Below are positions 87 through 22,360 of a stretch of DNA of 22,427 bases, in pieces. The position numbers and the translations under genes are program-made. Source of the DNA: Deferribacterales bacterium (GTDB taxonomy: Bacteria > Chrysiogenota > Deferribacteres > Deferribacterales > Geovibrionaceae); contig JBFWJG010000041.1 of NCBI GenBank assembly GCA_050253335.1, forward strand, positions 1-22,427. The letters are read 5' to 3'. Every line of letters starts with the position of its first letter. Position 1 is the first letter of the stretch. Under the pieces are notes generated by a model. It saw only the letters and a program-made list of their open reading frames with translations, did no database searches and was not told where the DNA came from.

Positions 87-238
87 ACAGTTCCATGGAG
101 GGAACTACGCCGTACGGAACAAAGGGCAGTACATCCATCCTAACAGTTCCACGGAGGGAACTGCGCCGTGCGGAGCGAAGGTTTGCTCTGCAAACCGCGA
201 GCGTGTATCACAAATCCCCACGGACGGGGATTTGTGAT
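87..238 (+). repeat. GGA-loop three-hairpin repeat, inverted relative to the other copies (full copy 144-238, partial copy 87-118)
   Basis: Reverse complement of 144-238 is atcacaaatcccc-gtccgt-ggggatttgtgat ACACGCTCGC ggtttgc-aga-gcaaacc TTCGCTCCGCACGGCG cagttcc-ctccgt-ggaactg, with the same linkers as the 5266, 9345 and 22284 copies. 87-118 repeats 143-174 with 3 substitutions. Confidence 0.9.
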
Positions 239-245
239 TGTCATA

Positions 246-2501
246 TCAAAACATACCGCCCATTGAGAATTCCCATCTGCCGCTTTTTTTACTGTCATCA
301 CGGTCAAGGGGAATACCGTATTCTATTCTTATCGGCCCTATGGGGCTGTACCAGCGGAAGCCGATACCGACACCCTGATAGAACTTGCCGCTGAGATAAT
401 CCTCATCCGTATCATTAACCTGCCCCGCATCGTAGAACAGGGCGCCTTTGAAGCCCTGATCGGCGGCTATAGGGAATATAAATTCAGCGTTAAAGAGAGC
501 CATCTTGTTTCCGCCGTAGTCATACCCGTCTTCATCCTTGGGAGATATGTAGCCGTACTTATAGCCCCTTACACTATAGATTCCGCCGAGCCTGAAACGT
601 TCATCAACCGGAAGAACCTCTCCGCTGGTTGAATCCAGATATCCGCCTTCAAGGTGGAGCATTCCCACAAATTTCCAGCCGAGGGGGATGAACTGAGTTG
701 TCTCCACTCCGGTTTTGTAGTAGTCATTATCTCCGCCGAGGGGGCCGCCTGCATATTTGTAGTAAACCCTTGAGATGTTTCCTTTGGTAGGATCAACCGG
801 GTGGTTCGTTGTTCTGTAGTTCAGGATGGGCGTGATGCTTACTGTTGTGAACTCGCCTTCCTGATCCCAGATGTATTTTGAAGCGTTGTCGTCAATATCG
901 GAAATCTCTTCCTGTTCGTAAGCCAGTTTGTATGTGGCGTAAAGCCTGCGTCCGATCACGGGATGCCCGAGCCTGAGAGCCACACCGTCATTGTGTTTGT
1001 CGTATTCAAGGTAGCTTCTTTTCAGCTTATAAAAATCCAGACCGAGGGTTATGGGCTTATCGAGGAACCAGGGGTCGGTGAGCGAGATTGTGTAGTCTGT
1101 CCTTTTGCTTGCGAACTCAGCCTTCAGGTCTGTTGTGTAGCCGGAGCCGAAAAGGTTCTTCTTCTGAAGACGGAGCATAAACATAAGCTCGTCCACGGAT
1201 GAATAACCCATACCCACGCTGAAAAATCCTGTTCTTTTATCCTTAACGCCAACATTGAGATCCACAGACGAGTCGTCCACACGTTTTTCATCAAGACGGA
1301 CTTCCTCAAAATAGTCGGTAAATTCTATATTCTTCTTGGAGCTTTTGATTCTGCGGCTGTCGTAGATGTCGCCTTCCGCGATATCCATCTCGCGCCTGAT
1401 GACTCTGTCCTTGGTGTCTGCGTTGCCTCTTATGTTTATACGGTTGATTTTGACAAGGACATTCTCTTCCACCCTGTACATGACAGAAACAGTTTTGTTG
1501 TCTTTGTTTTCATTGGTCAGGGGCTCCACGTTGGCAAAGGCATAGCCTATTTCAGTGAAGCGGTCTGTGAGACGCTTGATGTCGTTCTGGAATTCCTCAA
1601 CATTAAACCAGTCGCCGGGTTTAAGAACCGTAACTGATTCAAGCTCCTTATCCGTGCGGTGTTTGTTCCCCTGAAACGACACTGCCTCTATTTTGAATCT
1701 GCTGCCTTCCTCTATCCTGAAAGTCAGGGTGATTTTTTTCTTTTTATCATCATTGATCTTCACCTCAGGCTCGCCCACGCGGACCTTGATGAAGCCTTTT
1801 TTCATATATTCGCCGCGGATCTTCTCGACATCGACTTCGATAAGCTCCTGCTTGAGCTTGCCGCTTCCGGTGAGCCATGAGAAAAAGCCCTTCTCCTTAG
1901 TGGAGATCATCTTCATCAGCTCTTTACTGCTGTAAAAGCTGTTCCCTGCGAATACTATATCATATATTCTCGCCTCCGGCCCCTCCTCAATGCGGAAGAA
2001 CACGTCAACGGAGTTATCGCTTCTGTCTTCTATGTCTGCCTTAACCGCAACGGAATAGTATTTCTCGTCATGGTAAACGCTTATTATCTTGTTTATGTTC
2101 TCCTCGACCTTTGCCCTGTCGAAGATCTGCCCTTCCATGGGGATCATGTCTTCGGTTATGTATGTTTCCCTGACATTGATGTTCCCCTCAAGATAAACCT
2201 TATTCACATAAGGCTTTTCCTTAACGATATACACAAGAGTCAGCTTGTCGTCGTCCACACGCATGTCAACCTGAACATCTACCACAAGATCCGTTGAAAA
2301 GATCTCCTTGATGCTGGCGCTGACTTTGTTCATGTCGAACTCTTCGCCCGCTTTGACTGTGTATCTGAGGAAGGTTTCGGAAGGAACGCGTCTGTTTCCC
2401 TCTATTTTGATGAGGTCTATTACCGCGGCGTAGGAATTTGCCGCGAAGGTTAAAATGAGTGCACTAAAAAAAAAATTAATAAATAGCTTTTTCAAGTTCA
2501 T
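246..2501 (-). CDS. bamA: Outer membrane protein assembly factor BamA (Omp85)
   Basis: 751 aa; signal peptide, repeated POTRA-like segments (I.I.GN), VRGY motif in the barrel, GIGFRWYSPIGPIRIEYG, terminal Phe. Confidence 0.95.
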   Translation of the reverse strand: MNLKKLFINFFFSALILTFAANSYAAVIDLIKIEGNRRVPSETFLRYTVKAGEEFDMNKVSASIKEIFSTDLVVDVQVDMRVDDDKLTLVYIVKEKPYVNKVYLEGNINVRETYITEDMIPMEGQIFDRAKVEENINKIISVYHDEKYYSVAVKADIEDRSDNSVDVFFRIEEGPEARIYDIVFAGNSFYSSKELMKMISTKEKGFFSWLTGSGKLKQELIEVDVEKIRGEYMKKGFIKVRVGEPEVKINDDKKKKITLTFRIEEGSRFKIEAVSFQGNKHRTDKELESVTVLKPGDWFNVEEFQNDIKRLTDRFTEIGYAFANVEPLTNENKDNKTVSVMYRVEENVLVKINRINIRGNADTKDRVIRREMDIAEGDIYDSRRIKSSKKNIEFTDYFEEVRLDEKRVDDSSVDLNVGVKDKRTGFFSVGMGYSSVDELMFMLRLQKKNLFGSGYTTDLKAEFASKRTDYTISLTDPWFLDKPITLGLDFYKLKRSYLEYDKHNDGVALRLGHPVIGRRLYATYKLAYEQEEISDIDDNASKYIWDQEGEFTTVSITPILNYRTTNHPVDPTKGNISRVYYKYAGGPLGGDNDYYKTGVETTQFIPLGWKFVGMLHLEGGYLDSTSGEVLPVDERFRLGGIYSVRGYKYGYISPKDEDGYDYGGNKMALFNAEFIFPIAADQGFKGALFYDAGQVNDTDEDYLSGKFYQGVGIGFRWYSPIGPIRIEYGIPLDRDDSKKSGRWEFSMGGMF

Positions 2502-3127
2502 ATCCCGCCCAGCCGCTTAATTATTTCCTTAACGCGCTCGTGTTTGAGCCTTGTCATGCTCTTGTTCCCGATCAGCCTTGCCGTGGATTCAAGCATGGTC
2601 TCAATAACTTCAAGCCCGTTCTTCTTCAGTGTCTGCCCCGTGGAGACAAGGTCGACTATCATATCCGAAAGCCCGACAATGGGGGCAAGCTCGATTGAAC
2701 CGTAGAGTTTTATTGTTTCAACAAAAATGCCTTTTTTGGCAAAAAAATCTTTAGTCATTCTCGGGTACTTGGTGGCGACAACCATATCGTGTCTGTATCT
2801 GCTGTCGCTGTCTTTAATTCCGGCTACACAGAGTTTACATGCGCCGAAGCCCAGATCCATGAACTCATAAACATCGGCGGCGGTTTCCTTCACTATATCA
2901 AGACCGACAATGCCCATATCCGCCGCGCCGTGCTCGACATATGTGGGAACATCCATATTGCGCACAAGCATATATCTCATGCCGTGCTTCTCATCGAGGA
3001 AGACGAGTTTTCTGCTCTCCTCGTCCACTACCCCTTCCTGAGTGATCCCCTTTGACACAAAAAGTTCAATGGTTTCATCCGCCAGCCTGCCCTTGGGCAG
3101 GGCGACGGTTATTATATCTTCATTCAT
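2498..3127 (-). CDS. hisG: ATP phosphoribosyltransferase, short form (needs HisZ)
   Basis: ALPKGRL, VATKYP, YGSIELAP, DMIVDLVSTGQTLKKNGL; 209 aa, no C-terminal regulatory domain. Confidence 0.96.
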   Translation of the reverse strand: MNEDIITVALPKGRLADETIELFVSKGITQEGVVDEESRKLVFLDEKHGMRYMLVRNMDVPTYVEHGAADMGIVGLDIVKETAADVYEFMDLGFGACKLCVAGIKDSDSRYRHDMVVATKYPRMTKDFFAKKGIFVETIKLYGSIELAPIVGLSDMIVDLVSTGQTLKKNGLEVIETMLESTARLIGNKSMTRLKHERVKEIIKRLGGI

Positions 3128-4383
3128 TCCGCCATCCTTGTAATATCCGCGCCCAGAAGCGAAAGCTTTTCATCAAAGCGTTCGTAGCCTCTGTCCAGAT
3201 GGTAAACACGGAGGATCTCGCTTGTCCCCTCCGCCATAAGAGCCGCTATCACGAGGCTTGCGCTCGCCCTGAGGTCGGAAGCCATAACGGGAGCTCCGGT
3301 GATTTTCTCCACCCCTCTGATAACAGCGGATTTATCTTTAAGCTTTATATCCGCGCCCATGCGCTTGAGCTCGGAAACATGCATGAATCTGTTCTCGAAG
3401 ATTGTCTCCGTAATGACGGAAACACCGCCGGAGGCCGCCATCACAGACATAAATTGCGCCTGCATATCAGTGGGAAAACCGGGATAAGGCTGGGTGGATA
3501 TATCCGTGGCCTCAAGTCTGCCTGTTTTCTCCACCGTGATGGTGGAATCGTTTATAACCTTTATTCCCAGACCCGTCTGGGCGAGTTTATCTATTATAGC
3601 AGTCATGGAGGAAACAGGAGCGTTTTCCAGAGTAACTTTTCCGCCCGCGCAGGCAACCGCGCAGAGGAATGTTCCCGCCTCTATCCTGTCCGGCATTACT
3701 ATGTAGTCGTTGCTGTTGAGCTTTTCCACGCCTTTTATGCGGATAATCGTTGAGCCTTCGCCCTCTATCTTGGCTCCCATTTTCTTGAGAAAACGGGCAA
3801 GATCCACAACCTCGGGCTCCTGAGCGGCGTTATAGAGAACAGTCTCGCCTTCCGCCAGCGCCGCCGCCATCATTATATTTTCGGTTCCGGTCACAGTAAC
3901 CACGTCAAACGTGATTTCAGCGCCTTTCAGCCTTTCGCACTCCGCCTCGATATAGCCGTGTGCAACGCTGATGTCCGCCCCCATAAGCTTGAGCGCTTTT
4001 ATATGCTGATCAACCGGACGCTCACCTATGGCGCAGCCGCCGGGGAGAGAAACCTTAGCCTTTTTCTTTCTGGCGAGAAGCGGCCCGAGAGCAAGAACGC
4101 TGGCCCTCATCGTCTTCACCAGTTCATAGGGCGCTACGGCTTTTTCCATGTCATCAGAGCAATTAAGGAATATATCGCCGTCTTTTCGCTCGGCGCTGAC
4201 ACCCACCTCCCCCAGAAGGGAAAGCATTGTTCTTATATCTCTGAGATCGGGAACATTTGAAATTTTGTAGGAACCTTCCGCGAGGATTGTCGCGGCAAGA
4301 ATAGGAAGACAGGCATTTTTAGCGCCGCCTATGCGCACATTACCGTTAAGGGGCTTGCCCCCGTTTATGACCAGCTTTTCCAA
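3124..4383 (-). CDS. murA: UDP-N-acetylglucosamine 1-carboxyvinyltransferase
   Basis: GAKNA, LPGGCAIGERP (active-site Cys), PGFPTDMQAQ, DLRASASL, HLDRGYE; TTG start overlapping the prmC end. Confidence 0.97.
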   Translation of the reverse strand: MEKLVINGGKPLNGNVRIGGAKNACLPILAATILAEGSYKISNVPDLRDIRTMLSLLGEVGVSAERKDGDIFLNCSDDMEKAVAPYELVKTMRASVLALGPLLARKKKAKVSLPGGCAIGERPVDQHIKALKLMGADISVAHGYIEAECERLKGAEITFDVVTVTGTENIMMAAALAEGETVLYNAAQEPEVVDLARFLKKMGAKIEGEGSTIIRIKGVEKLNSNDYIVMPDRIEAGTFLCAVACAGGKVTLENAPVSSMTAIIDKLAQTGLGIKVINDSTITVEKTGRLEATDISTQPYPGFPTDMQAQFMSVMAASGGVSVITETIFENRFMHVSELKRMGADIKLKDKSAVIRGVEKITGAPVMASDLRASASLVIAALMAEGTSEILRVYHLDRGYERFDEKLSLLGADITRMAE

Positions 4384-5234
4384 AAAAGCACCCTTTTTAT
4401 CCCGCTCAGATCGCAGTAAAAGCGGTGTTGAAAACCACCGTTCCGTTTAGGCGGCTCCCCTTCAGAACCTGATGAAAAACCGCTGTAAATCCCGCTTAGA
4501 GCTTCGAATTGACCCGCGCCTATTTCAGCGAGAGCCACCCAGTTTTTATTGCATAAATCAGGCACTATGTCTATCAGTTTTTTATAGAACAAGAGCCCCT
4601 CATCCTCAGCAACCAGAGCCTGAACAGGTTCATACATAACGCTTTTTTCAAGCGTTTTATACTCCTGTTCCGTCACGTACGGGGGGTTGCAGAGCACCAT
4701 GTCAAACCCGCCCCGAATATTCAGGCTCCCGAGTACATCCCCCTGAACAAACTCCGCCCTGTCTGCCAGACCGAGCCTTCTGCTGTTTTCTTTCGCCACA
4801 TCAAGCGCACCCTGGCTGATGTCAACGCCCACGCCGGACGCACCGCTTATTTCCGCTAGAACGGAAAGGAGAATACAGCCTGAGCCGGTGCACAAATCAA
4901 GAATCCGTGGATTTTCGCAAGGGGCAAGTTCAACGGCTTTTTCCACGAGAATTTCAGTTTCGTGTCTCGGAATCAGCACATTTTCATTCACATAAAACTC
5001 ACGGCCGAAAAAGTGCCTGCGGTTCGTTATGTATGCGGGTGGGCAGCCTTCTCTGAGCCTGCCGAGAATATTTGTCACTTTTTCATCATGAGCCACATTT
5101 TCTGACATAAGAAAGGGTAGCCTTTCGTACTCGGCTCCCATTATGAACGCAAGAATATCAAGCGCGTCCGAACGGACGGGTATGATTGTCTGAATCTCTT
5201 TCAGAAGGGCGGCGGCAGTTATACATCCGTTTAT
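4365..5234 (-). CDS. prmC: Release factor glutamine N5-methyltransferase PrmC/HemK (start codon uncertain)
   Basis: VLIPRHETE, LDLCTGSGCI, NPPY motifs; downstream of prfA. The ORF-track start (5354) lies inside a repeat; PrmC-like sequence begins near 5234-5222. Confidence 0.9.
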   Translation of the reverse strand: MNGCITAAALLKEIQTIIPVRSDALDILAFIMGAEYERLPFLMSENVAHDEKVTNILGRLREGCPPAYITNRRHFFGREFYVNENVLIPRHETEILVEKAVELAPCENPRILDLCTGSGCILLSVLAEISGASGVGVDISQGALDVAKENSRRLGLADRAEFVQGDVLGSLNIRGGFDMVLCNPPYVTEQEYKTLEKSVMYEPVQALVAEDEGLLFYKKLIDIVPDLCNKNWVALAEIGAGQFEALSGIYSGFSSGSEGEPPKRNGGFQHRFYCDLSGIKRVLFWKSWS

Positions 5235-5265
5235 AAGCCTACCTCTTTCAATTTTTCTGTTTGAT

Positions 5266-5675
5266 AACCAAAATCTGCACGTCCTGTCAGATTTTGGTAC
5301 ACGCTCGCGCCTCGCAAAGCAAGGCTTCGCTGCGCACGGCGCAGTTCCATCCATGGAACTGTTATAAACCCGCCTCTTTTAGCCTTTCAGCCTGAGCTGA
5401 CTCACAACCAAAATCTGTACGTCCTGTCAGATTTTGGTACACGCTCGCGCCTTGCAAAGCAAGGCTTCGCTGCGCACGGCGCAGTTCCATCCATGGAACT
5501 GTTATAAACCCGCCTCTTTCAGCCTTTCAGCCTGAGCTGACTCACAACCAAAATCTGTACGTCCTGTCAGATTTTGGTACACGCTCGCGCCTTGCAAAGC
5601 AAGGCTTCGCTGCGCACGGCGCAGTTCCATCCATGGAACTGTTATAAACCCGCCTCTTTCAGCCTTTCAGCCTGA
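5266..5675 (-). repeat. Tandem array, three units of 140 bp period: GGA-loop element plus the last 34 nt of prfA
   Basis: Units start at 5266, 5406 and 5546 (aaccaaaatctg...). Each is followed by ttataaacccgcctctttYagcctttcagcctga; the third such segment is the true prfA end. Confidence 0.97.
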
Positions 5676-6712
5676 TCATATGAGAACAGAGCATCGAGGA
5701 TGTCGTCCATTTCGCCTTCCATGAAGCGGTCAAGGCTGTATGAGGTTACGTTGATGCGGTGGTCTGTCACCCTGTTCTGGGGGTAGTTGTATGTTCTGAT
5801 CCTTTCGCTTCTGTCGCCGGAGCCGACCTGAAGCTTTCTGCTTTCGGCGCGCTCGTCAGCCTGCTTGCGGATCTCAATCTCAAGTATTTTTGATTTCAGG
5901 TGTTTGAGAGCCTTCTCACGGTTTTTTATCTGGCTTCTCTCATCCTGACAGGTAACCACAATCCCCGTGGGAACGTGGGTCATGCGCACGGCCGAGTCAG
6001 TGGTGTTTACGTGCTGACCGCCTGCGCCGCTGGCACGGTATACATCCACCTTGATATCTGCCGGATTCACATCGATCTCCACATCCTCCGCCTCGGGCAG
6101 AACCGCCACAGTGCATGCTGATGTGTGTATGCGCCCGCCGGACTCGGTTTCGGGAATACGCTGAACCCTGTGACCGCCGGATTCATACTTCAGGCGGCTG
6201 TAAGCGCCCTTACCCTTAACCATGAAGACGATCTCTTTGTAACCGCCCACGCCTGTTTCGTTGAAATCGATTATTTCGGTCTTCCAGCGCTGGTTCTCCG
6301 CATAGCGGGTGTACATCCTGTAAAGCGCGGCAGAGAAAAGCGAAGCCTCATCCCCGCCCGTTCCGGCACGGACTTCAACGTATATATTCTTGTCGTCATA
6401 AGGATCTTTCTTAACAAGCAGAAGCTTGAGCTCCTCACCCAAGGTTTCAAGTTTTTCCCTGCCCTCTTCAATCTCCATCTCCGCAAGTTCACGCAGATCA
6501 GAATCATTTGAGGTTTCAAGAATGCTCTTAGCCTCAGCTATAGAAGTTTTAACATCCTTGTACTCTTCATACTTTTCCACTACTCCGCGAAGTTCGGAAT
6601 GCTCCTTGGCAAGCTTCTGAAACGCTTTGGGATCCTTCGCCGCAGAAGGATCATTCACCTTGCGAGTAAGGTCTTCATACCTGATGACTACTTCTTCCAG
6701 TTTGTCGAACAT
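5642..6712 (-). CDS. prfA: Peptide chain release factor 1
   Basis: GAGGQHVN (GGQ), RF1 PxT motif (RIPETE), RTYNYPQNRVTDHR. Confidence 0.98.
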   Translation of the reverse strand: MFDKLEEVVIRYEDLTRKVNDPSAAKDPKAFQKLAKEHSELRGVVEKYEEYKDVKTSIAEAKSILETSNDSDLRELAEMEIEEGREKLETLGEELKLLLVKKDPYDDKNIYVEVRAGTGGDEASLFSAALYRMYTRYAENQRWKTEIIDFNETGVGGYKEIVFMVKGKGAYSRLKYESGGHRVQRIPETESGGRIHTSACTVAVLPEAEDVEIDVNPADIKVDVYRASGAGGQHVNTTDSAVRMTHVPTGIVVTCQDERSQIKNREKALKHLKSKILEIEIRKQADERAESRKLQVGSGDRSERIRTYNYPQNRVTDHRINVTSYSLDRFMEGEMDDILDALFSYDQAERLKEAGL

Positions 6713-6745
6713 TGTTTATTCCTATTATTTAATAATCAGTTGTAT

Positions 6746-6867
6746 CCGAGGGAACTTTTAAGGGAAAAAACGTTCTATCGGACTATCTTCAAAAATTGAA
6801 TTCCCTGCGGAGCAATCACGCTTTTTTAAGGGGTAAGGGGAAGCTTTTCCCGGAAAAAGTTTCCCCT
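6746..6867. repeat. Inverted pair of GGGGAAACTTTT...AAAAGTTTCCCC-type palindromic repeats
   Basis: 6822-6867 ttttttaaggggtaaggggaagcttttcccggaaaaagtttcccct matches the reverse complement of 15419-15463; 6746-6797 is a degenerate copy in the opposite orientation ending tcttcaaaaatt. Confidence 0.7.
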
Positions 6868-6888
6868 ATAAATTATTTAAAAAAATTT

Positions 6889-7785
6889 TTATACTACCTC
6901 GATCCCTTCCGGAAGCTCCTGATCCAAGGCTGCTTTCAGGGAGATGATGGCTATTTCGAGCTGTTTGTCGTCGGGTTCTCTGGTGGTTATTTTCTGCACC
7001 CAGAGGCCGGGTGTGATGAATATTTTAAGCAGGGGGTTTCCGCAGTGGCGGCCGCTGAATTTCAGTATTTCGTAAGATATGCCTGCAATAAGCGGGATAA
7101 ACACAACCCTTGCGCCGAGTTTTATTAAAAAGTGCGAATCGTTCGGTATGAGCGAGAACGAGAGTATGCACACCGCCATGACTATTATTATGAAGCTTGT
7201 TCCGCATCTGGGGTGGAGTCTGCCCATTTTACGCGCATTTTCCACCGTAAGTTCCTGTCCGGCCTCGAAGGTATAGATAACCTTATGCTCGGCTCCGTGG
7301 TACTGGAAGACACGCTGAATATCCTTGAAAAAGGATATTATCCACACATACAGCACGAAAAATATCACCCTGATAACCCCGTCTATAGCGTTGTAAAGCA
7401 GGGCTGAAGTCTCAACAGCGGGCAATACGTGTTTTGAAAGATCCGTAAGCAGGAGAGGCAGATACACAAACAACAGCAGACCGAGCCCAAGCCCGCCCGC
7501 CATGCTGAAAAACATGCCGACTTTGCTTACCTGCTCCTCGCCTTCGCCTGTGGAGTGGTATGCGCTGAAATTAAGCGCCTTTATGCCGAGAACAAGTGCG
7601 TCATAGAGTGCGATAAGTCCTCTGAGTACAGGCTTTTTCAGCCATTTATTCCTGTCCAGACTCACGTCCTGTTTTTTGATTATTATATTATCGTCCGGTT
7701 TTCTCACTGCGATTACGAATCTGCTGGGTGCGCGCATCATTACACCCTCAATAACCGCCTGTCCGCCTACGTCAAATTTTGCCAT
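6889..7785 (-). CDS. DUF1385 (YqhQ-like) membrane protein, putative metal-dependent enzyme
   Basis: GGQAVIEGVMMR, YHGAEHK, HPRCGTSF, TTREPDD motifs; hydrophobic segments; typical position between rpmE and prfA. Confidence 0.9.
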   Translation of the reverse strand: MAKFDVGGQAVIEGVMMRAPSRFVIAVRKPDDNIIIKKQDVSLDRNKWLKKPVLRGLIALYDALVLGIKALNFSAYHSTGEGEEQVSKVGMFFSMAGGLGLGLLLFVYLPLLLTDLSKHVLPAVETSALLYNAIDGVIRVIFFVLYVWIISFFKDIQRVFQYHGAEHKVIYTFEAGQELTVENARKMGRLHPRCGTSFIIIVMAVCILSFSLIPNDSHFLIKLGARVVFIPLIAGISYEILKFSGRHCGNPLLKIFITPGLWVQKITTREPDDKQLEIAIISLKAALDQELPEGIEVV

Positions 7786-8146
7786 TAAACATTCCTTGAT
7801 ATTATGTTATTTATATAGTTCAGAAAACTTACGTCCTGTAGTTTTTCTTCACTCGCAGCCTGCGGAGCAAAGCTCCTTGCTGCTCTGGCTGCGCTATGCG
7901 TTCCTCGCATCCGCTGCGGTACGCGCTCCGCGGGCACATCTGTTTTTATATAGTTCAGAAAAACTTACATCCTGTAGTTTTTCTTCACTCGCAGCCTGTG
8001 GAGCAAAGCTCCTTGCTGCTCTGGCTGCGCTATGCGTTCCTCGCATCCGCTGCGGTACGCGCTCCGCGGGCACATCCATGTGCCTAAGCACCCTCAATAA
8101 CCGCCTGTCCGCCTACGTCAAATTTTGCCATTAAACATTCCTTGAT
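7743..8146 (-). repeat. 58-bp perfect direct repeat (7743-7800 and 8089-8146) enclosing two tandem ~131-bp GGA-loop elements (7810-7940, 7945-8084)
   Basis: caccctcaataa...aaacattccttgat occurs twice identically. Internal units have a 135-136 bp period and differ by 2 substitutions and 1 indel. Confidence 0.97.
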
Positions 8147-8171
8147 TTAATATATCCAACTGCCTTTTCTT

Positions 8172-8233
8172 GTCATTCTGAACGGAGTGAAGAATCCATT
8201 CCGATTGAGATTCTTCGCTTTGCTCAGAATGAC
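8172..8233. repeat. Palindromic REP-like element GTCATTCTGA...GAAGAATC...GATTCTTC...TCAGAATGAC
   Basis: Terminal inverted repeat gtcattctga/tcagaatgac and inner gaagaatc/gattcttc. Confidence 0.85.
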
Positions 8234-8355
8234 GCATACAAGAGTAAAACTCTTTCTGTCTCAGACACGCTGACGTCTCCGGAAAACAAACCAAATATTA
8301 TCGTTTGATAAATATATACACTTTTCATAATACATAAAGATAAAACTAAGATAAG

Positions 8356-9108: not shown

Positions 9109-9116
9109 ATGTGAAA

Positions 9117-9329
9117 TTAACCCTGTGCTTTACCGTATTTCTTCATGAATTTCTCAACACGGCCTGCCGTATCAAGGAATTTCTGTTTGCCTGTGAAGAA
9201 GGGGTGGCACTCAGCGCAGATAGCTACAACAGCTTTAGCGGGGTTAACGGTGGATTTTGTTTTAATCTCGTTGCCGCATGCGCATCTGAAAGACACTTCT
9301 TTGTAATCAGGGTGGATACCTTTTTTCAT
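9117..9329 (-). CDS. rpmE: 50S ribosomal protein L31, zinc-binding type
   Basis: [13 protein letters not shown]...[26 protein letters not shown] upstream. Confidence 0.97.
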
Positions 9330-9344: not shown

Positions 9345-9613
9345 TATTTTATAATGCAAAAACCAGCGTCCTGCGGTTTTTGCATACACGCTCGCGCCGA
9401 AACAAGTTCGGCTTCGCTGCGCACGGCGCGGTTTCTTCCTGAAACCGTACAAAAAAACCGCATGTTTTTAATTTATTTTATAATGCAAAAACCAGCGTCC
9501 TGCGGTTTTTGCATACACGCTCGCGCCGAAACAAGTTCGGCTTCGCTGCGCACGGTGCGGCTTCTTCCTGAAACCGTATCTTAAACGCATTATGCACAAA
9601 ACCAGCGCACGGC
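9345..9613 (-). repeat. Two tandem 105-bp GGA-loop elements (9345-9449, 9474-9578) plus a collapsed remnant (9592-9613)
   Basis: Period 129 bp, 2 substitutions between copies; linkers acacgctcgc and ttcgctgcgcacgg shared with the 5266 array. Confidence 0.95.
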
Positions 9614-9754: not shown

Positions 9755-9793
9755 CTGCAGCCTTTACTTACCCATTGATCCTTTACATAGTCT

Positions 9794-9880
9794 AAAAAAC
9801 AGCGTCCTGCTGTTTTTTCTTATCGCATCACCCGAAGAAACTTCGGGCTTGCTCCGCTGTGCGAGCCGCATCGTGCGGCT
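9794..9880 (-). repeat. Divergent GGA-loop three-hairpin element immediately after rho
   Basis: aaaaaacagc-gtcct-gctgtttttt; cccgaag-aaa-cttcggg followed by cttgct; agccgca-tcg-tgcggct. Confidence 0.8.
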
Positions 9881-12148: not shown

Positions 12149-15297
<3,149 letters not shown>

Positions 15298-15352
15298 TGT
15301 TTTTATTTTTTCCTTTTTTGAGTTACTAAATACTTAAATTTAAAAAATTCGG

Positions 15353-15468
15353 TTTTTTGGGAAGAGTTTGAGAAACCCTTTTTTCCCGTTAAAAAAGGGT
15401 TTCTCATTTTTAAGTAACGGGGAAACTTTTTAAAAAAAGCTTTCCCCAAACCCCTTCAAAAATTTTAA
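15353..15468. repeat. Inverted pair of GGGAAACTTTT-type palindromic repeats
   Basis: Perfect 16-bp stem tgagaaaccctttttt/aaaaaagggtttctca (15369-15406), then ggggaaactttttaaaaaaagctttccccaaaccccttcaaaaatt (15419 onward). Confidence 0.75.
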
Positions 15469-15498
15469 CTGCTTCGCATGGCTGATTTACCGATTAAA

Positions 15499-15516
15499 AT
15501 TTCCGTCCATGGAAAT
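15499..15516 (-). repeat. Solo GGA-loop hairpin abutting the methyltransferase stop codon
   Basis: Minus strand atttcc-ATGGAC-ggaaat. Confidence 0.55.
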
Positions 15517-16142
15517 CAGAAATTCACCAACAAAACGCCCGAACCAACGGGCAGCAGCGTTGATGACGCAGGCATATCATGTTTTATTTCCTCGATGAAG
15601 CTGAGGAGCTCGTCACGGCCTTGGCGGTATTTTTTCGGTACTTCCGCTGTTTCCATGGCGAGCATACCGAAGAGGAGAACATCATCGAAAATGACGAGTC
15701 CTCCCTTATTTACCCTTGGTTTTATTGTCTGCCACATGAGCGGGTAGTTCCTTTTGACAGAGTCGATGAACACCATATCGTAAGTATCGTTTGTGCGGTT
15801 AAGATATGTGAACGCGGATTCGCTTATGAATTCCACATTTTCCAGTTCGATGCAGAGTGTTTTCGCCACTGCCACGCGGTTCGGATTGTGGTCGATTCCG
15901 GTAATTTTCGCCTTCGGAGAGCCCTGTTTGATATAGGTTGTTGATGTGCCTATGCCGCTGCCTATTTCGAGGACTGAGGCGGGCTTGAGCACGGATGCCA
16001 GCAGGCGGAGGAGTTCCCCTGTTTCCGGCTCCACGGAGGGGACATCATGTTTTTTGGCGTAGTCGTGCATGTCTTCATTTTTCGCTCTGACTGTGGAGCG
16101 GATGTATTCGAGAATACCGGGAATTAGTATATCGTTTTTCAT
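15516..16142 (-). CDS. SAM-dependent O-methyltransferase (TrmR/YrrM-like)
   Basis: VLEIGSGIGTS, YDMVFIDS.K, GGLVIFDDVL; adjacent to the U32 gene. Confidence 0.85.
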   Translation of the reverse strand: MKNDILIPGILEYIRSTVRAKNEDMHDYAKKHDVPSVEPETGELLRLLASVLKPASVLEIGSGIGTSTTYIKQGSPKAKITGIDHNPNRVAVAKTLCIELENVEFISESAFTYLNRTNDTYDMVFIDSVKRNYPLMWQTIKPRVNKGGLVIFDDVLLFGMLAMETAEVPKKYRQGRDELLSFIEEIKHDMPASSTLLPVGSGVLLVNF

Positions 16143-16625
16143 TTACTGACCGAGATTTATTTTTTCAGGAGTGAGTTTTTCAGTTATCTGTGAAGCTTTT
16201 TCAGCGTCTATTTTGCCCAGTGCCGCCATTATTTTGCCTGCGTTCATGGGTGGAATTCTGCGGATGAGCTGAACAGCCTTGTCGGTGTCCATTTTAACGA
16301 AGATTTCCGCCGCTGATTTCGGCTTTGTGGAGGAGTATATTCTGGCGAGGGCATCGAGGTTTTTATCCTCGCTGGACTGAACTTCGTTCAGCCTTTTGGT
16401 TATGGTGTCCTTGATTGAGTTAAGCTCGTTCTCTTTCGCGATGAGCTCTTCCTCAAGGGCTTTCAGGCGTTTTTCTTTATCAGCCAGGACGGATTCCCTT
16501 TTGTTCAGTTCCTGCTCCTTAGCCTCAAGCCTCGCAGCGAGGCTCTGAATATCCACAATGCTCTGTGCCTGCGCGGTAAAAACTGCGGTTAATACCAAAA
16601 GCGCCGTGAGTAAGGGTTTATTCAT
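16143..16625 (-). CDS. Flagellar MotE/YlxF-like protein (signal peptide, coiled coil, MgtE_N-like domain)
   Basis: N-terminal signal, long coiled coil, LARIYSSTKPKSAAEIF..MD motif; follows fliJ. Confidence 0.75.
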   Translation of the reverse strand: MNKPLLTALLVLTAVFTAQAQSIVDIQSLAARLEAKEQELNKRESVLADKEKRLKALEEELIAKENELNSIKDTITKRLNEVQSSEDKNLDALARIYSSTKPKSAAEIFVKMDTDKAVQLIRRIPPMNAGKIMAALGKIDAEKASQITEKLTPEKINLGQ

Positions 16626-17055
16626 TTCTGCCGCTCCTTGAAACTATGAGTTCATCTATCATTTTCATCTCTTCCTTGTCCAGATAAGCAGTGTAGTCTT
16701 TAACATGCTTTTCCTTGAGCTTCATCATAATTTTGTGGTTGTTCATGGCCTGTACGGTTTTCTTCTTTTGCCGTTCCACCGCTATGCGGGCATCATGCAC
16801 CATGCGCTCCATGGTTTTTCTGTGCCCTTCAAGCTTGAGTATGTAGGCATCGTACATACGCACAAACTGCATCTGCCCGCTTATTTTGGCTTCTTCCTTC
16901 TCGGCGTGTTTCTGCTTTTCGGTCTCAAGCATTTCATTGAGCTGAACGGTAAGGGTGCGGAGCTTTGTCTCAGACTCCGCCAGTTTGTTCTTTTCCAGCT
17001 CAAAGATGCGTTCACGGTGTTCCAGAACCTTTTCCAGTCTGAATTTGGCGTTCAT
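16618..17055 (-). CDS. fliJ: Flagellar export protein FliJ
   Basis: 145 aa coiled coil, KFRLEKVLEHR N-terminus and EMKMIDE C-terminus, directly after fliI. Confidence 0.88.
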   Translation of the reverse strand: MNAKFRLEKVLEHRERIFELEKNKLAESETKLRTLTVQLNEMLETEKQKHAEKEEAKISGQMQFVRMYDAYILKLEGHRKTMERMVHDARIAVERQKKKTVQAMNNHKIMMKLKEKHVKDYTAYLDKEEMKMIDELIVSRSGRNE

Positions 17056-17056
17056 A

Positions 17057-18364
17057 TCATCCCGCCGTTATTTCATTAAGCTTTGAGCGCGCCTCTTCAA
17101 GGGTGAAGCTTTCGTCAATCCCCTGACGGAGGAATTCGTTTATGCGGTTTATCTTCGCTATGGCTTCGTCAATTCTGGGGTTGCTCCCCCTGACATAAGC
17201 TCCGATGTTGATCAGATCCTCCGCTTCGCGGTATGCGCTGAGGAGGTCGCGGAAGCGTCCCGCCGAGGCGAAGTCTTCCTTCGCCGTTATCTCCTTCATG
17301 AGCCTGCTTGCGCTCATGAGGATGTCAATGGCGGGATAATGGTTGCGTGCGGCCAGCAGCCTGTCCAGCACTATGTGGCCGTCTATGATTGAGCGCACGG
17401 AGTCGGCGATGGGATCGTTCATGTCGTCCCCTTCCACAAGGACAGTGTAAAGTCCTGTGACTGCTCCTTCGCCTCTCTTTGTGCCTGCCCTTTCCAGAAG
17501 CTTGGGCAAAAGAGCGAAGACTGAGGGCGTGTAGCCTTTTGAGGTGGGGGGCTCGCCCACTGTGAGGCCTATTTCCCTCTGCGCCATTGCAAAGCGTGTC
17601 ACTGAATCCATCATGAACATGACGTTCTTGCCTTTCGCCCTGAAATACTCCGCAACGGCAGTGGCGACAAATGCCCCCAGCTTACGCACAAGGGCTGACT
17701 GGTCGCTGGTGGCGACTATCACAACGCTTCTTTTCAGTCCTTCAGGTCCGAGGTCGCGCTCCACAAACTCGCGCACTTCTCTGCCTCGTTCGCCGATGAG
17801 CGCTATCACGTTCACGTCCGCCTCGGTGTTTCTGGCTATCATGCCGAGAAGAACCGACTTACCAACGCCGGAACCGGCGAATATGCCAACCCTCTGGCCT
17901 GAGCCGCAGGTCATGAGGGCGTCTATCGCCTTAACTCCGGTGGAGATTGATTCGCGTATGATTTCCCTCTCAAGCGGCAGAGGCGGGGAGGAGTAAACCT
18001 TGGCAAGGTCATAGTCCTGTATGGGGCCTTTGCCGTCTATGGGTTCGCCGAGGCCGTTGAGAATGCGCCCCAGCATATTTTCAGAGACCCTGACGGTGTT
18101 CCCAAGAGCGGTGTTGTGCACTCTGCTCCCGGGGGCTATTCCTTCGCTGTCACCGTAGGGCATGAGAATTATTCTGTTGTCGTTGAAGCCGATTATCTCC
18201 GCCAGAACTGTTCTGCCGTCACTGCCTTCTATGGCGCATCTGGTTCCGATTCCGAGCAGAGGGCCGTCCGCCTCGATGGTGAGGCCGATTATCTTCGTCA
18301 CCCTGCCGGAGATTACTATCTCTTCCTTAGCGTTTATTTGTCTCAGTCGATTCAAGTTCTTCAT
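17057..18364 (-). CDS. fliI: Flagellar export ATPase FliI
   Basis: GIFAGSGVGKS, LIGERGREVREF, MDSVTRFAMAQRE, GEPPTSKGYTPS. Confidence 0.97.
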   Translation of the reverse strand: MKNLNRLRQINAKEEIVISGRVTKIIGLTIEADGPLLGIGTRCAIEGSDGRTVLAEIIGFNDNRIILMPYGDSEGIAPGSRVHNTALGNTVRVSENMLGRILNGLGEPIDGKGPIQDYDLAKVYSSPPLPLEREIIRESISTGVKAIDALMTCGSGQRVGIFAGSGVGKSVLLGMIARNTEADVNVIALIGERGREVREFVERDLGPEGLKRSVVIVATSDQSALVRKLGAFVATAVAEYFRAKGKNVMFMMDSVTRFAMAQREIGLTVGEPPTSKGYTPSVFALLPKLLERAGTKRGEGAVTGLYTVLVEGDDMNDPIADSVRSIIDGHIVLDRLLAARNHYPAIDILMSASRLMKEITAKEDFASAGRFRDLLSAYREAEDLINIGAYVRGSNPRIDEAIAKINRINEFLRQGIDESFTLEEARSKLNEITAG

Positions 18365-19205
18365 AGATCAGCTTCTTAAAGTTTTCCAGCATGGTTTCTA
18401 TGGTATAATCCATTTCGCCTATACTGGTGTCTATTTTAAGCCCGCCCTGAGTTACGGCAGGGTCGGCCACGGAATCATAATCGGGAAAGGCCTGTCTCAC
18501 CGTTTCCAGATCATCGGGATTTACCCTGAAAACCACACGGCTTAGCTCGTGGAGGCTTGTCAGGCTCTTTTTAATGACAGAAACGATCAGCCGCCCGTTC
18601 ACTTTTCTTTCCGCGCCTATGAGGGTTTCAAGGAAATGGGTGAGCATTTCGGGCAGTGCGCTGTCCAGTTCCTTCACTGCGGAAGAAAAGACTCCGGTGC
18701 GGGATATTACCTCTTTATAAGCGCCCTGAAGCATTTCTATATAGTCGTTCTTTTCTTTATTATAATGTTTTCTGGAATTTTCCGCCGCTTCAAGCATACC
18801 TTTCTTATAGCCGTCGCTGTACGCTCTTTCGTATTCGGCTTTCAGGAGCTCCTGAAGCTTCTTCTCGTCCATTGCAGGAGGCTCTTCTTTTATTTCAGCT
18901 TCCTTGAAAACAGCTTCGGAAAACTCCTTGGGTTCCTTTTTTTCCGGTTCGGGAATATTTTCAGGCTCATGCTTCTGGTGCTTATCCAGATAAACTGACG
19001 AATCGCCGACTATGCGCGCCTTGCCGAGGTTGACTGCTGTGTCGAAACTGGCGAAAAGAAAGGGGATCTCGCCGCTGACGGCATTGGTATCCTTGAGTTT
19101 TTCAAGGGAAAAGACCTTCTCTCCGCGCTCCACATCCCCGAAGCTGGTGATATCCATTTCCCTGAGTTCTTTCTGTCTGTTTTTGCCGACGATTTTTCTG
19201 GACAT
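18327..19205 (-). CDS. fliH: Flagellar assembly protein FliH
   Basis: AYSDGYKKG (AxxxGxxxG) repeats, RVNPDD, DPAVTQGGLKIDT; lies between fliG and fliI. Confidence 0.85.
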   Translation of the reverse strand: MSRKIVGKNRQKELREMDITSFGDVERGEKVFSLEKLKDTNAVSGEIPFLFASFDTAVNLGKARIVGDSSVYLDKHQKHEPENIPEPEKKEPKEFSEAVFKEAEIKEEPPAMDEKKLQELLKAEYERAYSDGYKKGMLEAAENSRKHYNKEKNDYIEMLQGAYKEVISRTGVFSSAVKELDSALPEMLTHFLETLIGAERKVNGRLIVSVIKKSLTSLHELSRVVFRVNPDDLETVRQAFPDYDSVADPAVTQGGLKIDTSIGEMDYTIETMLENFKKLIYEELESTETNKR

Positions 19206-19226
19206 AATTCAATCCGGTGGGATTTG

Positions 19227-20228
19227 TTAAACGTACTGCTCTTCCTCTCCGCCGCCGAGGTTGATAACCCCTTCTTCGTCGAGTTCGCGTACAATGGCGA
19301 CAATCTCGTGCTGAGCCTTTTCCACTTCCTTGAGCTTGACAGGGCCCATGTAGTCCATCTCTTCGCGCATTGTTTCCACTGCGCGTTTGGACATGTTTCT
19401 GAAGAAGCGTTCCTTAGTATCGTCATCAGCACCCTTGAGGGCAAGGGTAAGAGCCTTTTTATCCGCTTTCTTGAGGATTTCCTGAATGGCTACGTCATTA
19501 AGCTCTCTGATATCCTCGAATACAAACATCATATCGCGTATGGCCGCAACAAGCTCCGGCGCTTCCTTCTCCAGTTTTTCCAGCGTTGCCTTGCTGGTCA
19601 CTCTGTCCATACGGTTGAATATCTCGGCCACAGACTTAACGCCGCCGACCTCAACATTGTATGAGGAGAGGGATTCGAACCTTTCCTCCAGCACTCTGGA
19701 AAGTGTTTTTACAACCGTGGGTGAAATATCCTGAAGATTCGCTATCCTCAGTGTTATCTCCGCCTTCAGCTCCTCAGGAAGCTGCGCCAGAGACTCCGCC
19801 GCGTGGCTGGGGTCAAGGTGAGCGAGGATAAGAGCTATTGTCTGGGGGTGCTCTGTCTGTATGAATTTAGCAAGCTGCTTGGGGTCAATCTTAGTGAGAA
19901 ACTCAAATCCGCTGGACTGTTCCATCATTTTGGTGAGACGGTCGATGATCTTCCTTGCGCGTTCAGGGCCGAGAGACTTGACAAGAACGCTTTTAGCGTA
20001 TTCAAGACCGCCCTTGGCGATGAACTTTTTGGCAAGCATCATGTTGTAGAATTCTTCTATTGTTTCGTCCATCTCCTCAGGGGGGATGATCTTGGTCATG
20101 GCTATCTCTTTTGAGATCTCCTGAACCTCGTCATCATCAAGATGAGCAAAAATAGCAGAGGAAATTTCCTCACCGAGGGCGATGAGCACCGCCGCGGCTT
20201 TTCTGATGCCTGTACTGGAAATACTCAT
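19227..20228 (-). CDS. fliG: Flagellar motor switch protein FliG
   Basis: KAAAVLIALG, GGLEYA, EHPQTIALIL, MFVFED, NMSKRA, GPVKLKEVE. Confidence 0.98.
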   Translation of the reverse strand: MSISSTGIRKAAAVLIALGEEISSAIFAHLDDDEVQEISKEIAMTKIIPPEEMDETIEEFYNMMLAKKFIAKGGLEYAKSVLVKSLGPERARKIIDRLTKMMEQSSGFEFLTKIDPKQLAKFIQTEHPQTIALILAHLDPSHAAESLAQLPEELKAEITLRIANLQDISPTVVKTLSRVLEERFESLSSYNVEVGGVKSVAEIFNRMDRVTSKATLEKLEKEAPELVAAIRDMMFVFEDIRELNDVAIQEILKKADKKALTLALKGADDDTKERFFRNMSKRAVETMREEMDYMGPVKLKEVEKAQHEIVAIVRELDEEGVINLGGGEEEQYV

Positions 20229-20229
20229 A

Positions 20230-21891
20230 TCAACCTTTCAACATGGATTTTATAATGTTCGCCGCGCCTTCCGGATCCTCTTCGCAGAATTCCTCTATCT
20301 TCTTCAGCATTACCTTGGACTTAACGGCGTCAGTGTTCATAGGTACGCTTTCATCAAGTTCCTGTTCGACCTCACGCTCAAGTTCCTCAAGGGTTTTGGG
20401 GAATCCGGCACTGTCCTTCAGGGTGACATCCACGGAATCAAGCGCGGAGGAAACCGTGATTGTGCCGTCGTCGTTGTAGGTGACGGTTTTGTCCAGCTTT
20501 TTGAGAATGCGCCTGACCACGGCAAAGTAGAACAGGAGCAGAATAATGACCGCAAGGGCATATTTGGATGCTATGGTTATGAGTTCCACTGTCTTCTCTC
20601 TCTGGAGCAGAAGCTGCTCCTGCTGCTGTACGGAGGTGTCAAAGGATATGTTGTTGACCTCAACCTGATCACCCCTTGCCTGGTCAAAGCCGACGGCGGT
20701 GGCGACAAGGGCGCGGATTGAGTTAAGCTCCTCCTGAGTTCTGGGGACGCTTTCGGTTATCTGGTTTCCGGATTCATCGGTGCGGATCACATTTTTATTG
20801 TCCACAACAACGGCAACGGAGATTTTCTTGATTGTGCCGAAGGCCTTGACTTCCTTGGTGACTGTTTTATCTATCTCAAAGTTTGAACGTTCTTCCGTGT
20901 GTTCGTAAGATGAATTGGTATTTCCGCCCAGCACCTGAGGCTCGGCGAGGTTTGACTCAACACCGGGCACGCCCTGCGGCCCTTCGGGCGAGTTTGAGCT
21001 TATTGTTTCTATATTCTCGGAAGAGCGGATCACGGGTTCGCGTCCGAACTCCTCCCTGCTGGTTTCTCTTTTGGAAAAATCTATCTCCGCCGTAACCTTG
21101 GCGACTGCTCCGGTTTCCCCTATGGTTCTTCCCAGTATTCCGTAAAGCTTGGATTCAAGCTCCCGCTCTATCCTTTTCTGATATTCAAGCTGGGTCTGGG
21201 TCATCATCACAGGGGAACTTTCCTCGCCTAGAAAATCGCTGAGAAGCCTGCCTGTGGTATCAACCACCTGAACGTTTTCAGGAATAAGCCCCTTTACGGA
21301 ACCTGAAACAAGAGAGCTGATCGCCTTGACCTGCTCACGGTTAAGTTCGGAGCCTCTTTTAAGCTTGATGACCACTGCGGCCTTTGCGGATTCCTCTTCG
21401 GATATAAAGAGCCTGTTTTTGGGAATGGTAAGGTGTACCCTTGCTTCTTCTATTTCGTTAAGGCTGCCTATTGTTCTGGCGAGTTCGCCCTGAAGCGCGC
21501 GCTGATAATTCACATCCTGAAGGAACTCCGTCATTCCGTAGGATGATTTGTCGAAAAGCTCGAACCCTGCCCCGCCGCCCTTAGGCAGACCCTCACGGGC
21601 GAGATCAAGCCTCGTGTCATAAACCAGCTCCTGCGGAACCTCCACCGTTCCCCCGCCGTCTTTAAGCCTGTACGGAACATTGCCCTCTTTGAGTTTTTCG
21701 ATAACCAGAGGGGCATCGTCTGCGTTCATATTGGCATAAAGGGTTTTGTAGACGGGTCTGTTTGCCCAGATAAGAAGGACACCCAGAGTAACAAGCACCG
21801 CGGCTAACGCGGCGCCGATGGAAATTTTCTGAACAAGAGTCAGTTTCTCAAAAATATCTTTAAACTGAGTTACGACGTCTTGAAGTGCCAT
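20230..21891 (-). CDS. fliF: Flagellar M-ring protein FliF
   Basis: GFELFD, YQRALQGELARTI, ARVHL, GVPGVESN, GFDQARGDQVEV; two TM segments. Confidence 0.97.
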   Translation of the reverse strand: MALQDVVTQFKDIFEKLTLVQKISIGAALAAVLVTLGVLLIWANRPVYKTLYANMNADDAPLVIEKLKEGNVPYRLKDGGGTVEVPQELVYDTRLDLAREGLPKGGGAGFELFDKSSYGMTEFLQDVNYQRALQGELARTIGSLNEIEEARVHLTIPKNRLFISEEESAKAAVVIKLKRGSELNREQVKAISSLVSGSVKGLIPENVQVVDTTGRLLSDFLGEESSPVMMTQTQLEYQKRIERELESKLYGILGRTIGETGAVAKVTAEIDFSKRETSREEFGREPVIRSSENIETISSNSPEGPQGVPGVESNLAEPQVLGGNTNSSYEHTEERSNFEIDKTVTKEVKAFGTIKKISVAVVVDNKNVIRTDESGNQITESVPRTQEELNSIRALVATAVGFDQARGDQVEVNNISFDTSVQQQEQLLLQREKTVELITIASKYALAVIILLLFYFAVVRRILKKLDKTVTYNDDGTITVSSALDSVDVTLKDSAGFPKTLEELEREVEQELDESVPMNTDAVKSKVMLKKIEEFCEEDPEGAANIIKSMLKG

Positions 21892-21903
21892 TTGCCCCTA
21901 ATA

Positions 21904-22215
21904 CTATACTTGAGTTCTCATAACCTCTTGGTAAGCTTCAACGATTTTGTTCTTAACCTCGAGCATGAGTTTGAGGGAAACATCCGCTTTCTGGAGAGCA
22001 ATCATTGTGGAATGAATGTCCTTCGTTTCGCCGTTAAGAACTTTCTGCACAGCTTCACTCGCCTCAAGCTGGGCGTCATTGACGCTGCTGAGGGCATCCT
22101 TGAGCAGGGCGGAAAAATCCGCTCCGGATTCGCTCTGAGTGCCCGCAGACTTGGAGGATGAAGTGTCATCAAGCTTATTCGGCAAAAGGAAGTTGATATT
22201 ATTTATCTCTGCCAT
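21904..22215 (-). CDS. fliE: Flagellar hook-basal body protein FliE
   Basis: F..LLKDAL..VN, DIHSTMIALQKA, VKNKIVEAYQEVMRTQV. Confidence 0.96.
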   Translation of the reverse strand: MAEINNINFLLPNKLDDTSSSKSAGTQSESGADFSALLKDALSSVNDAQLEASEAVQKVLNGETKDIHSTMIALQKADVSLKLMLEVKNKIVEAYQEVMRTQV

Positions 22216-22283
22216 TTTCAGTGTCTCCCTAACTGAATATATAGTATATCAGGGGTATTTTACAACCTTTATCTAACTTTATA

Positions 22284-22360
22284 AGAACAATCCGCGCGTC
22301 CTGCCGGATTGTTCTACACGCTCGCGCCGTGGTAAACACGGCTTCGCTTCGCACGGCGCG
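22284..22360 (-). repeat. GGA-loop element lacking the third hairpin, upstream of fliE
   Basis: agaacaatccg-c-gc-gtcct-gc-cggattgttct ACACGCTCGC gccgtg-gtaaa-cacggc TTCGCTTCGCACGGCG. Confidence 0.9.

Follow-up and report, generated by a model that had tools for sequence, protein, structure and literature searches.

Repeat Copies in the Window

The window, i.e., the whole stretch of 22,427 nt that was analysed, represents one entire contig (JBFWJG010000041.1) of a 2.58 Mb Deferribacterales genome (GCA_050253335.1), and the subject of this study is a repeat with three hairpins that is dispersed along it. We found that the repeat is real, mobile, constrained and CsrA-shaped; a role as a sponge is a hypothesis, and not a new one. 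All 20 window genes called with a home-made hexamer caller, by which individual orientations may be wrong, lie on the minus strand, and those adjacent to the repeat were bamA, prmC, prfA, a DUF1385 gene, thyX, rpmE, rho and fliE. Below, G000 denotes the genome studied, G001 to G003 its relatives, of which G003 is a complete genome, and G004 a genome of a different genus.

The repeat unit was approximately 105 nt long. Read on the strand that carries GGA in the loops of both outer hairpins, it consisted of H3 (GGA loop), a GCGNAGCGAA linker, H2, a GCGAGCGTGT linker, H1 (GGA loop) and a short tail. In the consensus, H3 had 7 pairs and was followed by CGCCGTGCG N AGCGAA; H2 had 7 pairs and a 3-base loop and was followed by GCGAGCGTGT; and H1 was built of 11 pairs, one bulge, 2 pairs and the GGA loop, with a tail of 10-15 nt behind it. 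The middle base of the linker motif GCG-N-AGC was free (A45 C42 G28 T22). Three separate helices covaried, and the two GGA hairpins flanked the third, closed hairpin. The two GGA sites of a unit lay 68-69 nt apart in 85 of 134 copies, and inspection of the alignment indicated that the ends of the element were not complementary.

A covariance model, trained on 40 genome copies, matched every copy listed in a preliminary description of the window. The full copies scored 107.5 bits (139-250, plus strand), 118-121 bits (5255, 5395 and 5535, minus strand), 105-108 bits (9342 and 9471, minus strand) and 92 bits (22272, minus strand), and the divergent copies 34, 29 and 20 bits (7943, 9781 and 7809, all minus strand). 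At the left end of the window, a partial plus-strand copy with the H3 hairpin (loop ATGGAG) and the linker start lay at 84-125, next to a full copy at 141-246 on the plus strand (loops ACGGAG in H3 and ACGGAC in H1), the tail of which touched the bamA stop codon. The earlier statement that at five of six loci GGA lies on the mRNA strand, as given by the flanking genes, was confirmed; at this full copy the GGA strand is opposite to bamA.

The array between prfA and prmC was on the minus strand and consisted of three full copies separated by duplicates of the prfA end. The source of the duplicates was the prfA 3' end at 5642-5676; copy 1 (5537-5644) opened with its H3 right behind the prfA stop codon, and it was followed by a duplicate of the final ~34 nt of prfA (5502-5536), copy 2 (5397-5504), a duplicate of the final ~34 nt including the stop codon (5362-5396) and copy 3 (5257-5364; loops ATGGAT and AGGAC). 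An old and diverged duplicate (69-74% alike) lay at 5231-5265 in front of prmC. As a side observation, prmC starts with ATG-ATT-ACA in G001 and G003, where it is not directly behind prfA, and in the window (5200-5354) its frame is missed by one base by the ATG at 5224-5226. Further back, the prmC frame stays open as far as an ATG within the last repeat copy, in its H3 loop; therefore, the start of prmC may lie in the element itself, or an unusual start codon may be used.

The other copies also lay on the minus strand. At the DUF1385 start, a 63-nt duplication enclosed two copies of a subfamily B. The upstream copy of the duplication (8089-8151) was followed by copy 1 (7947-8088), which opened with a TAG closing the duplicated mini-frame and had the loops ATGGAT and AGGAT, and by copy 2 (7812-7945), which had a longer linker, an H1 loop AGGAC and an eroded 5' hairpin. 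The downstream copy (7743-7805) held the ribosome-binding site (RBS), the ATG and the first 14 DUF1385 codons and represents the working start. As described earlier, the minus strand at 7966-7976 reads TACAGGATGTA. A full copy lay immediately upstream of the rpmE RBS (9345-9447; loops AGGAA and AGGAC), with a tandem copy upstream of it (9474-9577). The divergent copy after rho (9787-9878; H1 loop AGGAC, 5' loop ACGAT without GGA) was flanked by a diverged duplicate of ~30 nt of the rho end; this duplicate was near-perfect in G002, and the element was absent in G003. Behind a methyltransferase gene, a collapsed H3/H1 hybrid with the loop ATGGAC remained at 15485-15516, where G002 and G003 keep a full copy with a duplication of ~60 nt. 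The preliminary description had overlooked this remnant (near 15505) and the flanking duplications. It had also given H3 as missing from the copy upstream of fliE (22278-22362); this was true of G000 only, since H3 was present in G002 and G003. In total, the window held 23 A(N)GGAN hairpins with at least 5 pairs (17 with at least 7), approximately 19 of them inside repeats, in agreement with the earlier estimate of about 20.

Distribution and Placement of the Repeat

A profile built from 126 core-anchored copies yielded 187 matches at 111 loci in the genome and none in the reversed genome used as a control. The exact core occurred 93, 65, 90 and 227 times in four genomes of the genus, the highest count being that of G003, and in none of 37 relatives outside the genus. 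The covariance model was positive in 14 of 41 relatives and, across the phylum, in 22 of 68 genomes; beyond the genus, copies were few. In a wider genome collection, from which the genus's own records may be excluded, the exact core gave three matches, scoring 25, 17 and no bits, and viral sequences gave one match (8.7 bits).

The copies were extragenic and lay after stop codons, and divergent gaps between genes were rare among their sites (4 of 89 vs. 204 of 731 gaps, p=1e-7). The neighbouring genes (prfA, rho, rpmE, fliE and bamA) had no common function. Distant homologues in other genera were observed between two tRNA genes and before phage-like genes, namely a head protein region and, in antisense, a lysis amidase (L072 1501-1613; L073 1501-1613; L081 1501-1609). 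The end of a glyoxalase-like gene held element copies in G000 (G000:C13:41727) and also in G004 (L075).

Mobility and Flanking Duplications

To place the arrays between species, those of G003 were compared with G000. Among the 41 arrays examined, 28 could be placed and 13 could not; 18 of the placed sites were filled in G000 and 10 lacked the core, at least one of these with a remnant. The end of the DUF1385 gene provided a clear example. In G003, the site reads S-E-S-E-S, in which E is the element and S a duplicated segment of ~31 nt, while the site is empty in G000 and G002. The ancestral stop codon remains with the last S, and the element gives a TGA to the first S. The gene ending at 15516 was likewise a clean case, with the ancestral stop at the last duplicate and a new stop from the element. 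At the DUF1385 start, the element sits after codon 14, and the 63-nt duplication restores the RBS and the ATG. The segment is single in G002, G004 and one public run (the G002 and public-run alleles lack the element and join at 7742-8089 of the window), and the site is filled in G001 and G003; thus the G002 allele may represent a precise loss. These results showed that the element has been gained and lost between species.

A direct repeat at both junctions was detected in 24 of 79 testable arrays (10 more were at contig ends) and in none of 396 shuffled pairs. By eye, five of the 24 were artefacts of tandem or other repeats, and the remaining 19 duplications were 18-75 nt long; 16 of these 19 contained the sense stop codon. 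Eight of 20 duplications began with GA, the final bases of the tail consensus (by eye; p=2.5e-5). Flanking duplications were also found at 7 of 41 arrays in G003, in a test that took 40 loci, all on one strand, and at 3 of 31 in other genera (one by the strict rule and two by eye). The genome's Ssn-type repeats had no such scar; the hits (3 of 53) were all other repeats. The results showed that, upon insertion, 18-75 nt of the upstream DNA become directly duplicated (S-E-S) and that arrays grow and shrink by slippage between the duplicates. Since the duplicated piece is usually a gene 3' end or an RBS with a start codon, the genes survive. At prfA, atpG and other sites, the scar was present in both species and each duplicate resembled the gene end of its own species, indicating that the pairs were homogenised or remade in place. 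The suggestion that the copies form a spreading set was thus borne out by the filled and empty sites and by the flanking duplications, and these alleles together with the clear scar make the insertion route testable.

Stem Covariation and Constraint

The preliminary description had held that the stems covary. In 40 copies picked for distinct H1 stems, 24 of 27 pairs changed on both sides; 92.1% of the cells were paired vs. 61% after shuffling, and 335 cells showed two-sided changes, compared with 99 in the shuffled set and with 14 one-sided changes. Mispairs of the G-T and A-C types numbered 2 and 2 of 231 in H3, 6 and 1 of 287 in H2, and 13 and 24 of 962 in H1. We also considered that the stems might be derived from the target DNA; as a general rule this was unsupported, given that many loci have common arms.

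The orthologous copies of G000 and G003 were then compared in 17 pairs, with the best H1 taken per array and the linkers ascertained by the search pattern. The H1 stems differed by six double and five single changes, and their identity of 89% between orthologues vs. 45% between non-orthologues indicated that H1 is locus-specific. H2 and H3 were sometimes swapped as blocks at orthologous sites. Fourfold sites were 61% identical, and the free loop positions (12 of 22 kept) and the N of GCGNAGC (9 of 17) drifted at a similar pace. The loop core, by contrast, was kept in 44 of 44 cases, and the H1 arm, although specific to its locus, in 169 of 187. These results demonstrated that the resident copies are constrained. 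Gene conversion can explain the kept loop core but not the locus-specific H1 arm. In addition, the covariation appears to resemble arm-to-arm copying and conversion more than slow compensation at the RNA level.

Orientation Relative to Transcription

Of the 111 loci, 22 were at contig ends; 60 lay between co-directional genes, 25 were flanked by convergent genes and 4 by divergent ones. At the co-directional loci, the GGA strand, as judged by gene orientation, was sense in 50 and antisense in 10 (p=1.6e-7), so the strand bias anticipated from the window extended genome-wide. A control family, the 66 Ssn-type (CGTC) repeats, gave 16 sense and 18 antisense copies (Fisher p=3.7e-4 for the difference). 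In inferred leading-strand operons, the sense to antisense ratio was 16:1 in G000 and 12:3 in G003, where the origin was assumed at the first base of the genome. As to the replication strand as the only cause of the bias, 32 of 48 loci had GGA on what was inferred to be the leading strand, and the split was 6:6 between convergent genes. Fourteen of 48 sense starts in G000 lay 20-28 nt behind H1. In low-copy relatives, 22 of 31 model matches lay between same-sense genes, and ~16 abutted an RBS (by eye; three represent one orthologous site).

GGA Loops and the Fit to CsrA

CsrA and RsmA bind A(N)GGA(N) in hairpin loops, and the repeat carries this motif in such loops. Among 137 core-anchored copies, the H1 hairpin was called in 96 (92 with GGA) and H3 in 112 (101 with GGA). 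The 91 six-base H3 loops read, by position, A in 90, free, G in 86, G in 90, A in 90 and free; all 33 distinct stems that carried an ANGGAN loop were closed by C-G. The H1 loops alternated between five and six bases with A, G, G, A and the closing C-G kept, and the commonest H1 core was ACAGGAUGU. This arrangement of fixed and free positions is the one known for CsrA/RsmE, in whose complexes loop bases 2 and 6 are looped out. Compared with AYGGAY, 71 of the 91 H3 loops had a pyrimidine as second base and 55 of 91 as sixth base, and the H1 loops were mostly five-base AGGAY. PMC7652899 gives RUACARGGAUGU as the SELEX consensus for CsrA.

The genome contained 250 intergenic A(N)GGAN hairpins with at least 7 pairs, compared with 2-13 for five unrelated loop patterns; two further control patterns, which partly coincide with loops of the family itself, yielded 35 and 20. 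The intergenic A(N)GGAN hairpins were sense in 116 cases and antisense in 21. The preliminary description had found no csrA in the window but had overlooked csrA and fliW in another part of the genome; csrA scored above the curated NCBIfam cut-off and sits directly behind fliW. All 14 model-positive genomes among the relatives carried csrA. Both flagellin leaders of the host carry a C-AAGGAA-G hairpin ahead of the RBS; thus the host's likely CsrA operators share the hairpin form of the repeat. The two flagellins themselves are giant, at ~1030 aa each (G000:C10:5203-8307 and 16599-19679). Host CsrA probably binds the RNA of the element, whereas a selected regulatory or sponge role of the repeat can be put forward only tentatively.

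Comparison with Known Systems

A match to a described family would have removed the novelty of the repeat. A scan of the window against Rfam gave no RF01731 match at E<=1 and only a chance miRNA match on an Ssn-type doublet (E=0.94), and RF01731 gave no match at E<=0.001 in 21 genomes, although the 14 control genomes were likewise silent. RF01731, the TwoAYGGAY motif (described by Weinberg 2010, PMC2864571), nevertheless resembles the repeat in having two GGA-loop hairpins, covarying stems, a stem with tandem G-A-like motifs, an intergenic location and many copies that vary between genomes (65-227 exact cores in four genomes here, up to ~200 for TwoAYGGAY). For both, the spread is mobile-like, and a Csr/Rsm sponge function has been proposed but is unproven. 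The TwoAYGGAY hairpins rise from one basal stem, whereas the present element has three separate helices; its topology and 12 alignment rows suggest that it may be a circular permutation of TwoAYGGAY. Gardner and Eldai (PMC4333381) proposed CsrA binding for TwoAYGGAY, and Li et al. (bioRxiv 10.64898/2026.09.22.753630), who describe divergent doublets and as many as 202 copies, call the link to Csr and mobility unresolved. TwoAYGGAY-like repeats are widespread. The idea of a sponge with mobile-like spread is therefore already in print for TwoAYGGAY (in these two sources).

The element shares GGA in hairpin loops, and two sites that suit the CsrA dimer, with CsrB/RsmY/RsmZ sponges and operators such as B. 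subtilis hag (PMC7652899). Unlike CsrB/RsmY/RsmZ, it places two sites per unit in ~190 units scattered in or after operons rather than in one many-site RNA gene; in addition, the host has FliW, and the stems are longer than most SELEX ligands. The NTS/SRM repeats that occur with Ssn GIY-YIG nucleases (PMC11893778) are likewise extragenic hairpin repeats and share GCGNAGCGAAG, whereas the element lacks the CGTC-type stem, and the SRMs of this genome lack strand bias, GGA loops and long duplications. Like REP/REPIN/BIME repeats and bacterial MITEs (PMC2229807), the element is non-autonomous, shorter than 200 bp, located after stop codons and arranged in tandem arrays; unlike them, it has no terminal inverted repeats or TA ends, its duplications are long and variable (18-75 nt), and no Y1 transposase was found. 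In the literature searched, which included a minority of subscription papers, neither this family nor long duplications of gene ends at GGA repeats had been described. These long duplications, together with stems nearly free of G-U pairs, are new, testable facts.

Proposed Mechanism and Alternative Explanations

Our overall reading is that of a mobile, non-autonomous Deferribacterales repeat, expanded in the genus, whose transcript offers CsrA sites, and we give it about an even chance. In the most likely mechanism, a single-stranded copy of the GGA strand would be written in at a free 3' end by an enzyme acting in trans, and synthesis would pick up 20-75 nt further back, where a few bases, often GA, are homologous to the tail. 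Arm-to-arm copying would produce the pure Watson-Crick covariation, and only insertions that leave a stop codon or RBS intact would survive. Once transcribed, a copy would present the dimer of host CsrA with a pair of CsrA-type sites spaced 68-69 nt apart. The kept loops and the sense orientation might then be partly explained by such binding, whether it titrates CsrA or controls the RBS or 3' end next to the copy. If CsrA binds, the ~250 hairpins would amount to about ten times the sites of one CsrB gene, tying motility control to bulk transcription. RNA antagonists of CsrA are not known in FliW-type bacteria. Whether FliW and RNAs jointly act on CsrA in any species is still to be determined according to PMC7652899.

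Several observations weigh against this reading. The stems are nearly free of the G-U pairs expected from RNA-level compensation, G-T being no commoner than A-C. Repeat stems have 7-13 pairs, while SELEX hairpins mostly have at most 4 (PMC7652899). Antisense copies were no less intact than sense ones, with median scores of 77 bits (n=8) and 76 bits (n=45), respectively (p=0.58), and three antisense copies were conserved across species, which tempers a purely mRNA role. The bias on the inferred lagging strand was weak (6:2 in G000 and 5:2 in G003; pooled 11:4, p=0.12). The csrA gene is near-universal in the order (36 of 41) and, with no significant co-occurrence (p=0.15), does not explain the distribution of the repeat. 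Flanking duplications were absent from 55 of 79 arrays, the linker conservation was partly ascertained by the search pattern, and the best-matching H1 was selected per array. The earlier proposal of CsrA sites thus holds in part: strand bias, csrA presence and loop fit speak for it, and the uninformative csrA distribution, the intact antisense copies and the few G-U pairs against it.

In a rival explanation, a small nuclease that mobilises the element would recognise the structure in single-stranded DNA, as Ssn does with its hairpin repeats; the GGA loops would be the code of the nuclease and the likeness to CsrA sites incidental. The DNA GNA mini-hairpin offers a structural comparison for GCG-N-AGC, the middle base of which is free, and stems almost without G-T pairs, 335 two-sided against 14 one-sided changes and intact antisense copies fit this explanation. 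GCGNAGCGAAG also occurs in the genome's Ssn-type repeats, and two other repeat families of the genus adjoin their own small nuclease genes. However, the exchange of five- and six-base H1 loops with A, G, G, A and the closing C-G kept is a tolerance known for CsrA, the host's flagellin leaders use the same hairpin, and the Ssn-type repeats show neither strand bias nor duplications. Furthermore, a clear copy of the element lay near only 1 of 10 ssn loci, with weak ones near one more, and ssn was not found with the query used in G000, G001 or G003. We consider this explanation unlikely, though the strongest of the rivals. Regarding candidate enzymes, Y1 (RAYT, PF01797) transposases were found in 0 of 5 genomes, with the control positive in 6 of 14; Y2 transposases were found in 0 of 5, where the control was silent too, and IS110 in 0 of 5. 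GIY-YIG frames were UvrC-sized except in G002, where one Ssn-like gene had repeats of the other type on its flanks, and no G000 gene was bracketed by element copies like cargo. A visiting enzyme is assumed for many REP families and may have acted here.

A SINE-like route, in which GGA-strand RNA is reverse-transcribed at a target nick and CsrA may join the ribonucleoprotein, would account for the sense bias specific to this family. Target-primed reverse transcription is marked by variable-length duplications, short 3'-junction homology and variable 5' ends, all of which were seen here. The partner suggested earlier, an HUH enzyme or a reverse transcriptase, was not found: no reverse transcriptase was detected in G000, G002, G004 or G003, despite the 227 copies of the latter, and the one in G001 was below all curated cut-offs with no copy nearby. 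RNA templating alone would also leave the lack of G-U pairs unexplained, so that this route appears quite improbable. A combined version, in which target-primed copying into gene ends (with a 20-75-nt duplication and the element's own stop codon) founded a parasite turned regulator, with CsrA docked on the two loops and ~250 hairpins serving as a distributed mRNA-borne sponge, is also improbable, if slightly less so. Finally, the repeat may be a domesticated cis-regulatory or sponge module that brought host benefit first and spread by ordinary recombination and gene conversion only. The copy-level constraint between G000 and G003, the same-sense placement and RBS contacts in low-copy relatives (22 of 31 and ~16), the 14 of 48 sense starts 20-28 nt behind H1 and the exchange of H2 as a block at orthologous sites agree with it. 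By contrast, the neighbour genes lack a common function, approximately one-third of the sites turn over between species, the copy number ranges from 65 to 227 within the genus, and recombination alone makes no new sites with long duplications. We regard this domestication as very improbable.

Neighbouring Repeat Families

The Ssn-type repeats often adjoined the element; 26 of 137 copies had one within 250 nt, and both share the GCGNAGCGAAG stretch. In the window, an inverted CGTC-type pair (TCCCTCGCTGAGATCCTTC...CAGGATGAC) lay at 5-70, at the contig start beside the partial copy, and an inverted doublet of CGTC/Ssn-type hairpins lay upstream of DUF1385 (8172-8233); the genome held 66 such copies. 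Another repeat type, with GGGGAAAC/G-T-run ... A-run-GTTTCCCC hairpins, occupied 6756-6870 and 15354-15460 and was common to the relatives.

A DUF559 nuclease was present in two of four genomes, flanked by CCCCCT-type repeats, with one eroded element copy beyond them. In G002 and G003, its gene lay within tandem CCCCCT...GGGGG hairpin repeats (L134 1330-2200; L135 1440-2370). The CCCCCT...GGGGG pattern gave 96 matches in G000, with both strands counted, and G000 had no DUF559 gene. At G007:C4:39092-39289 (L068), two duplicates of the last ~19 codons of an ssn-like gene were observed upstream of the gene among hairpin repeats.

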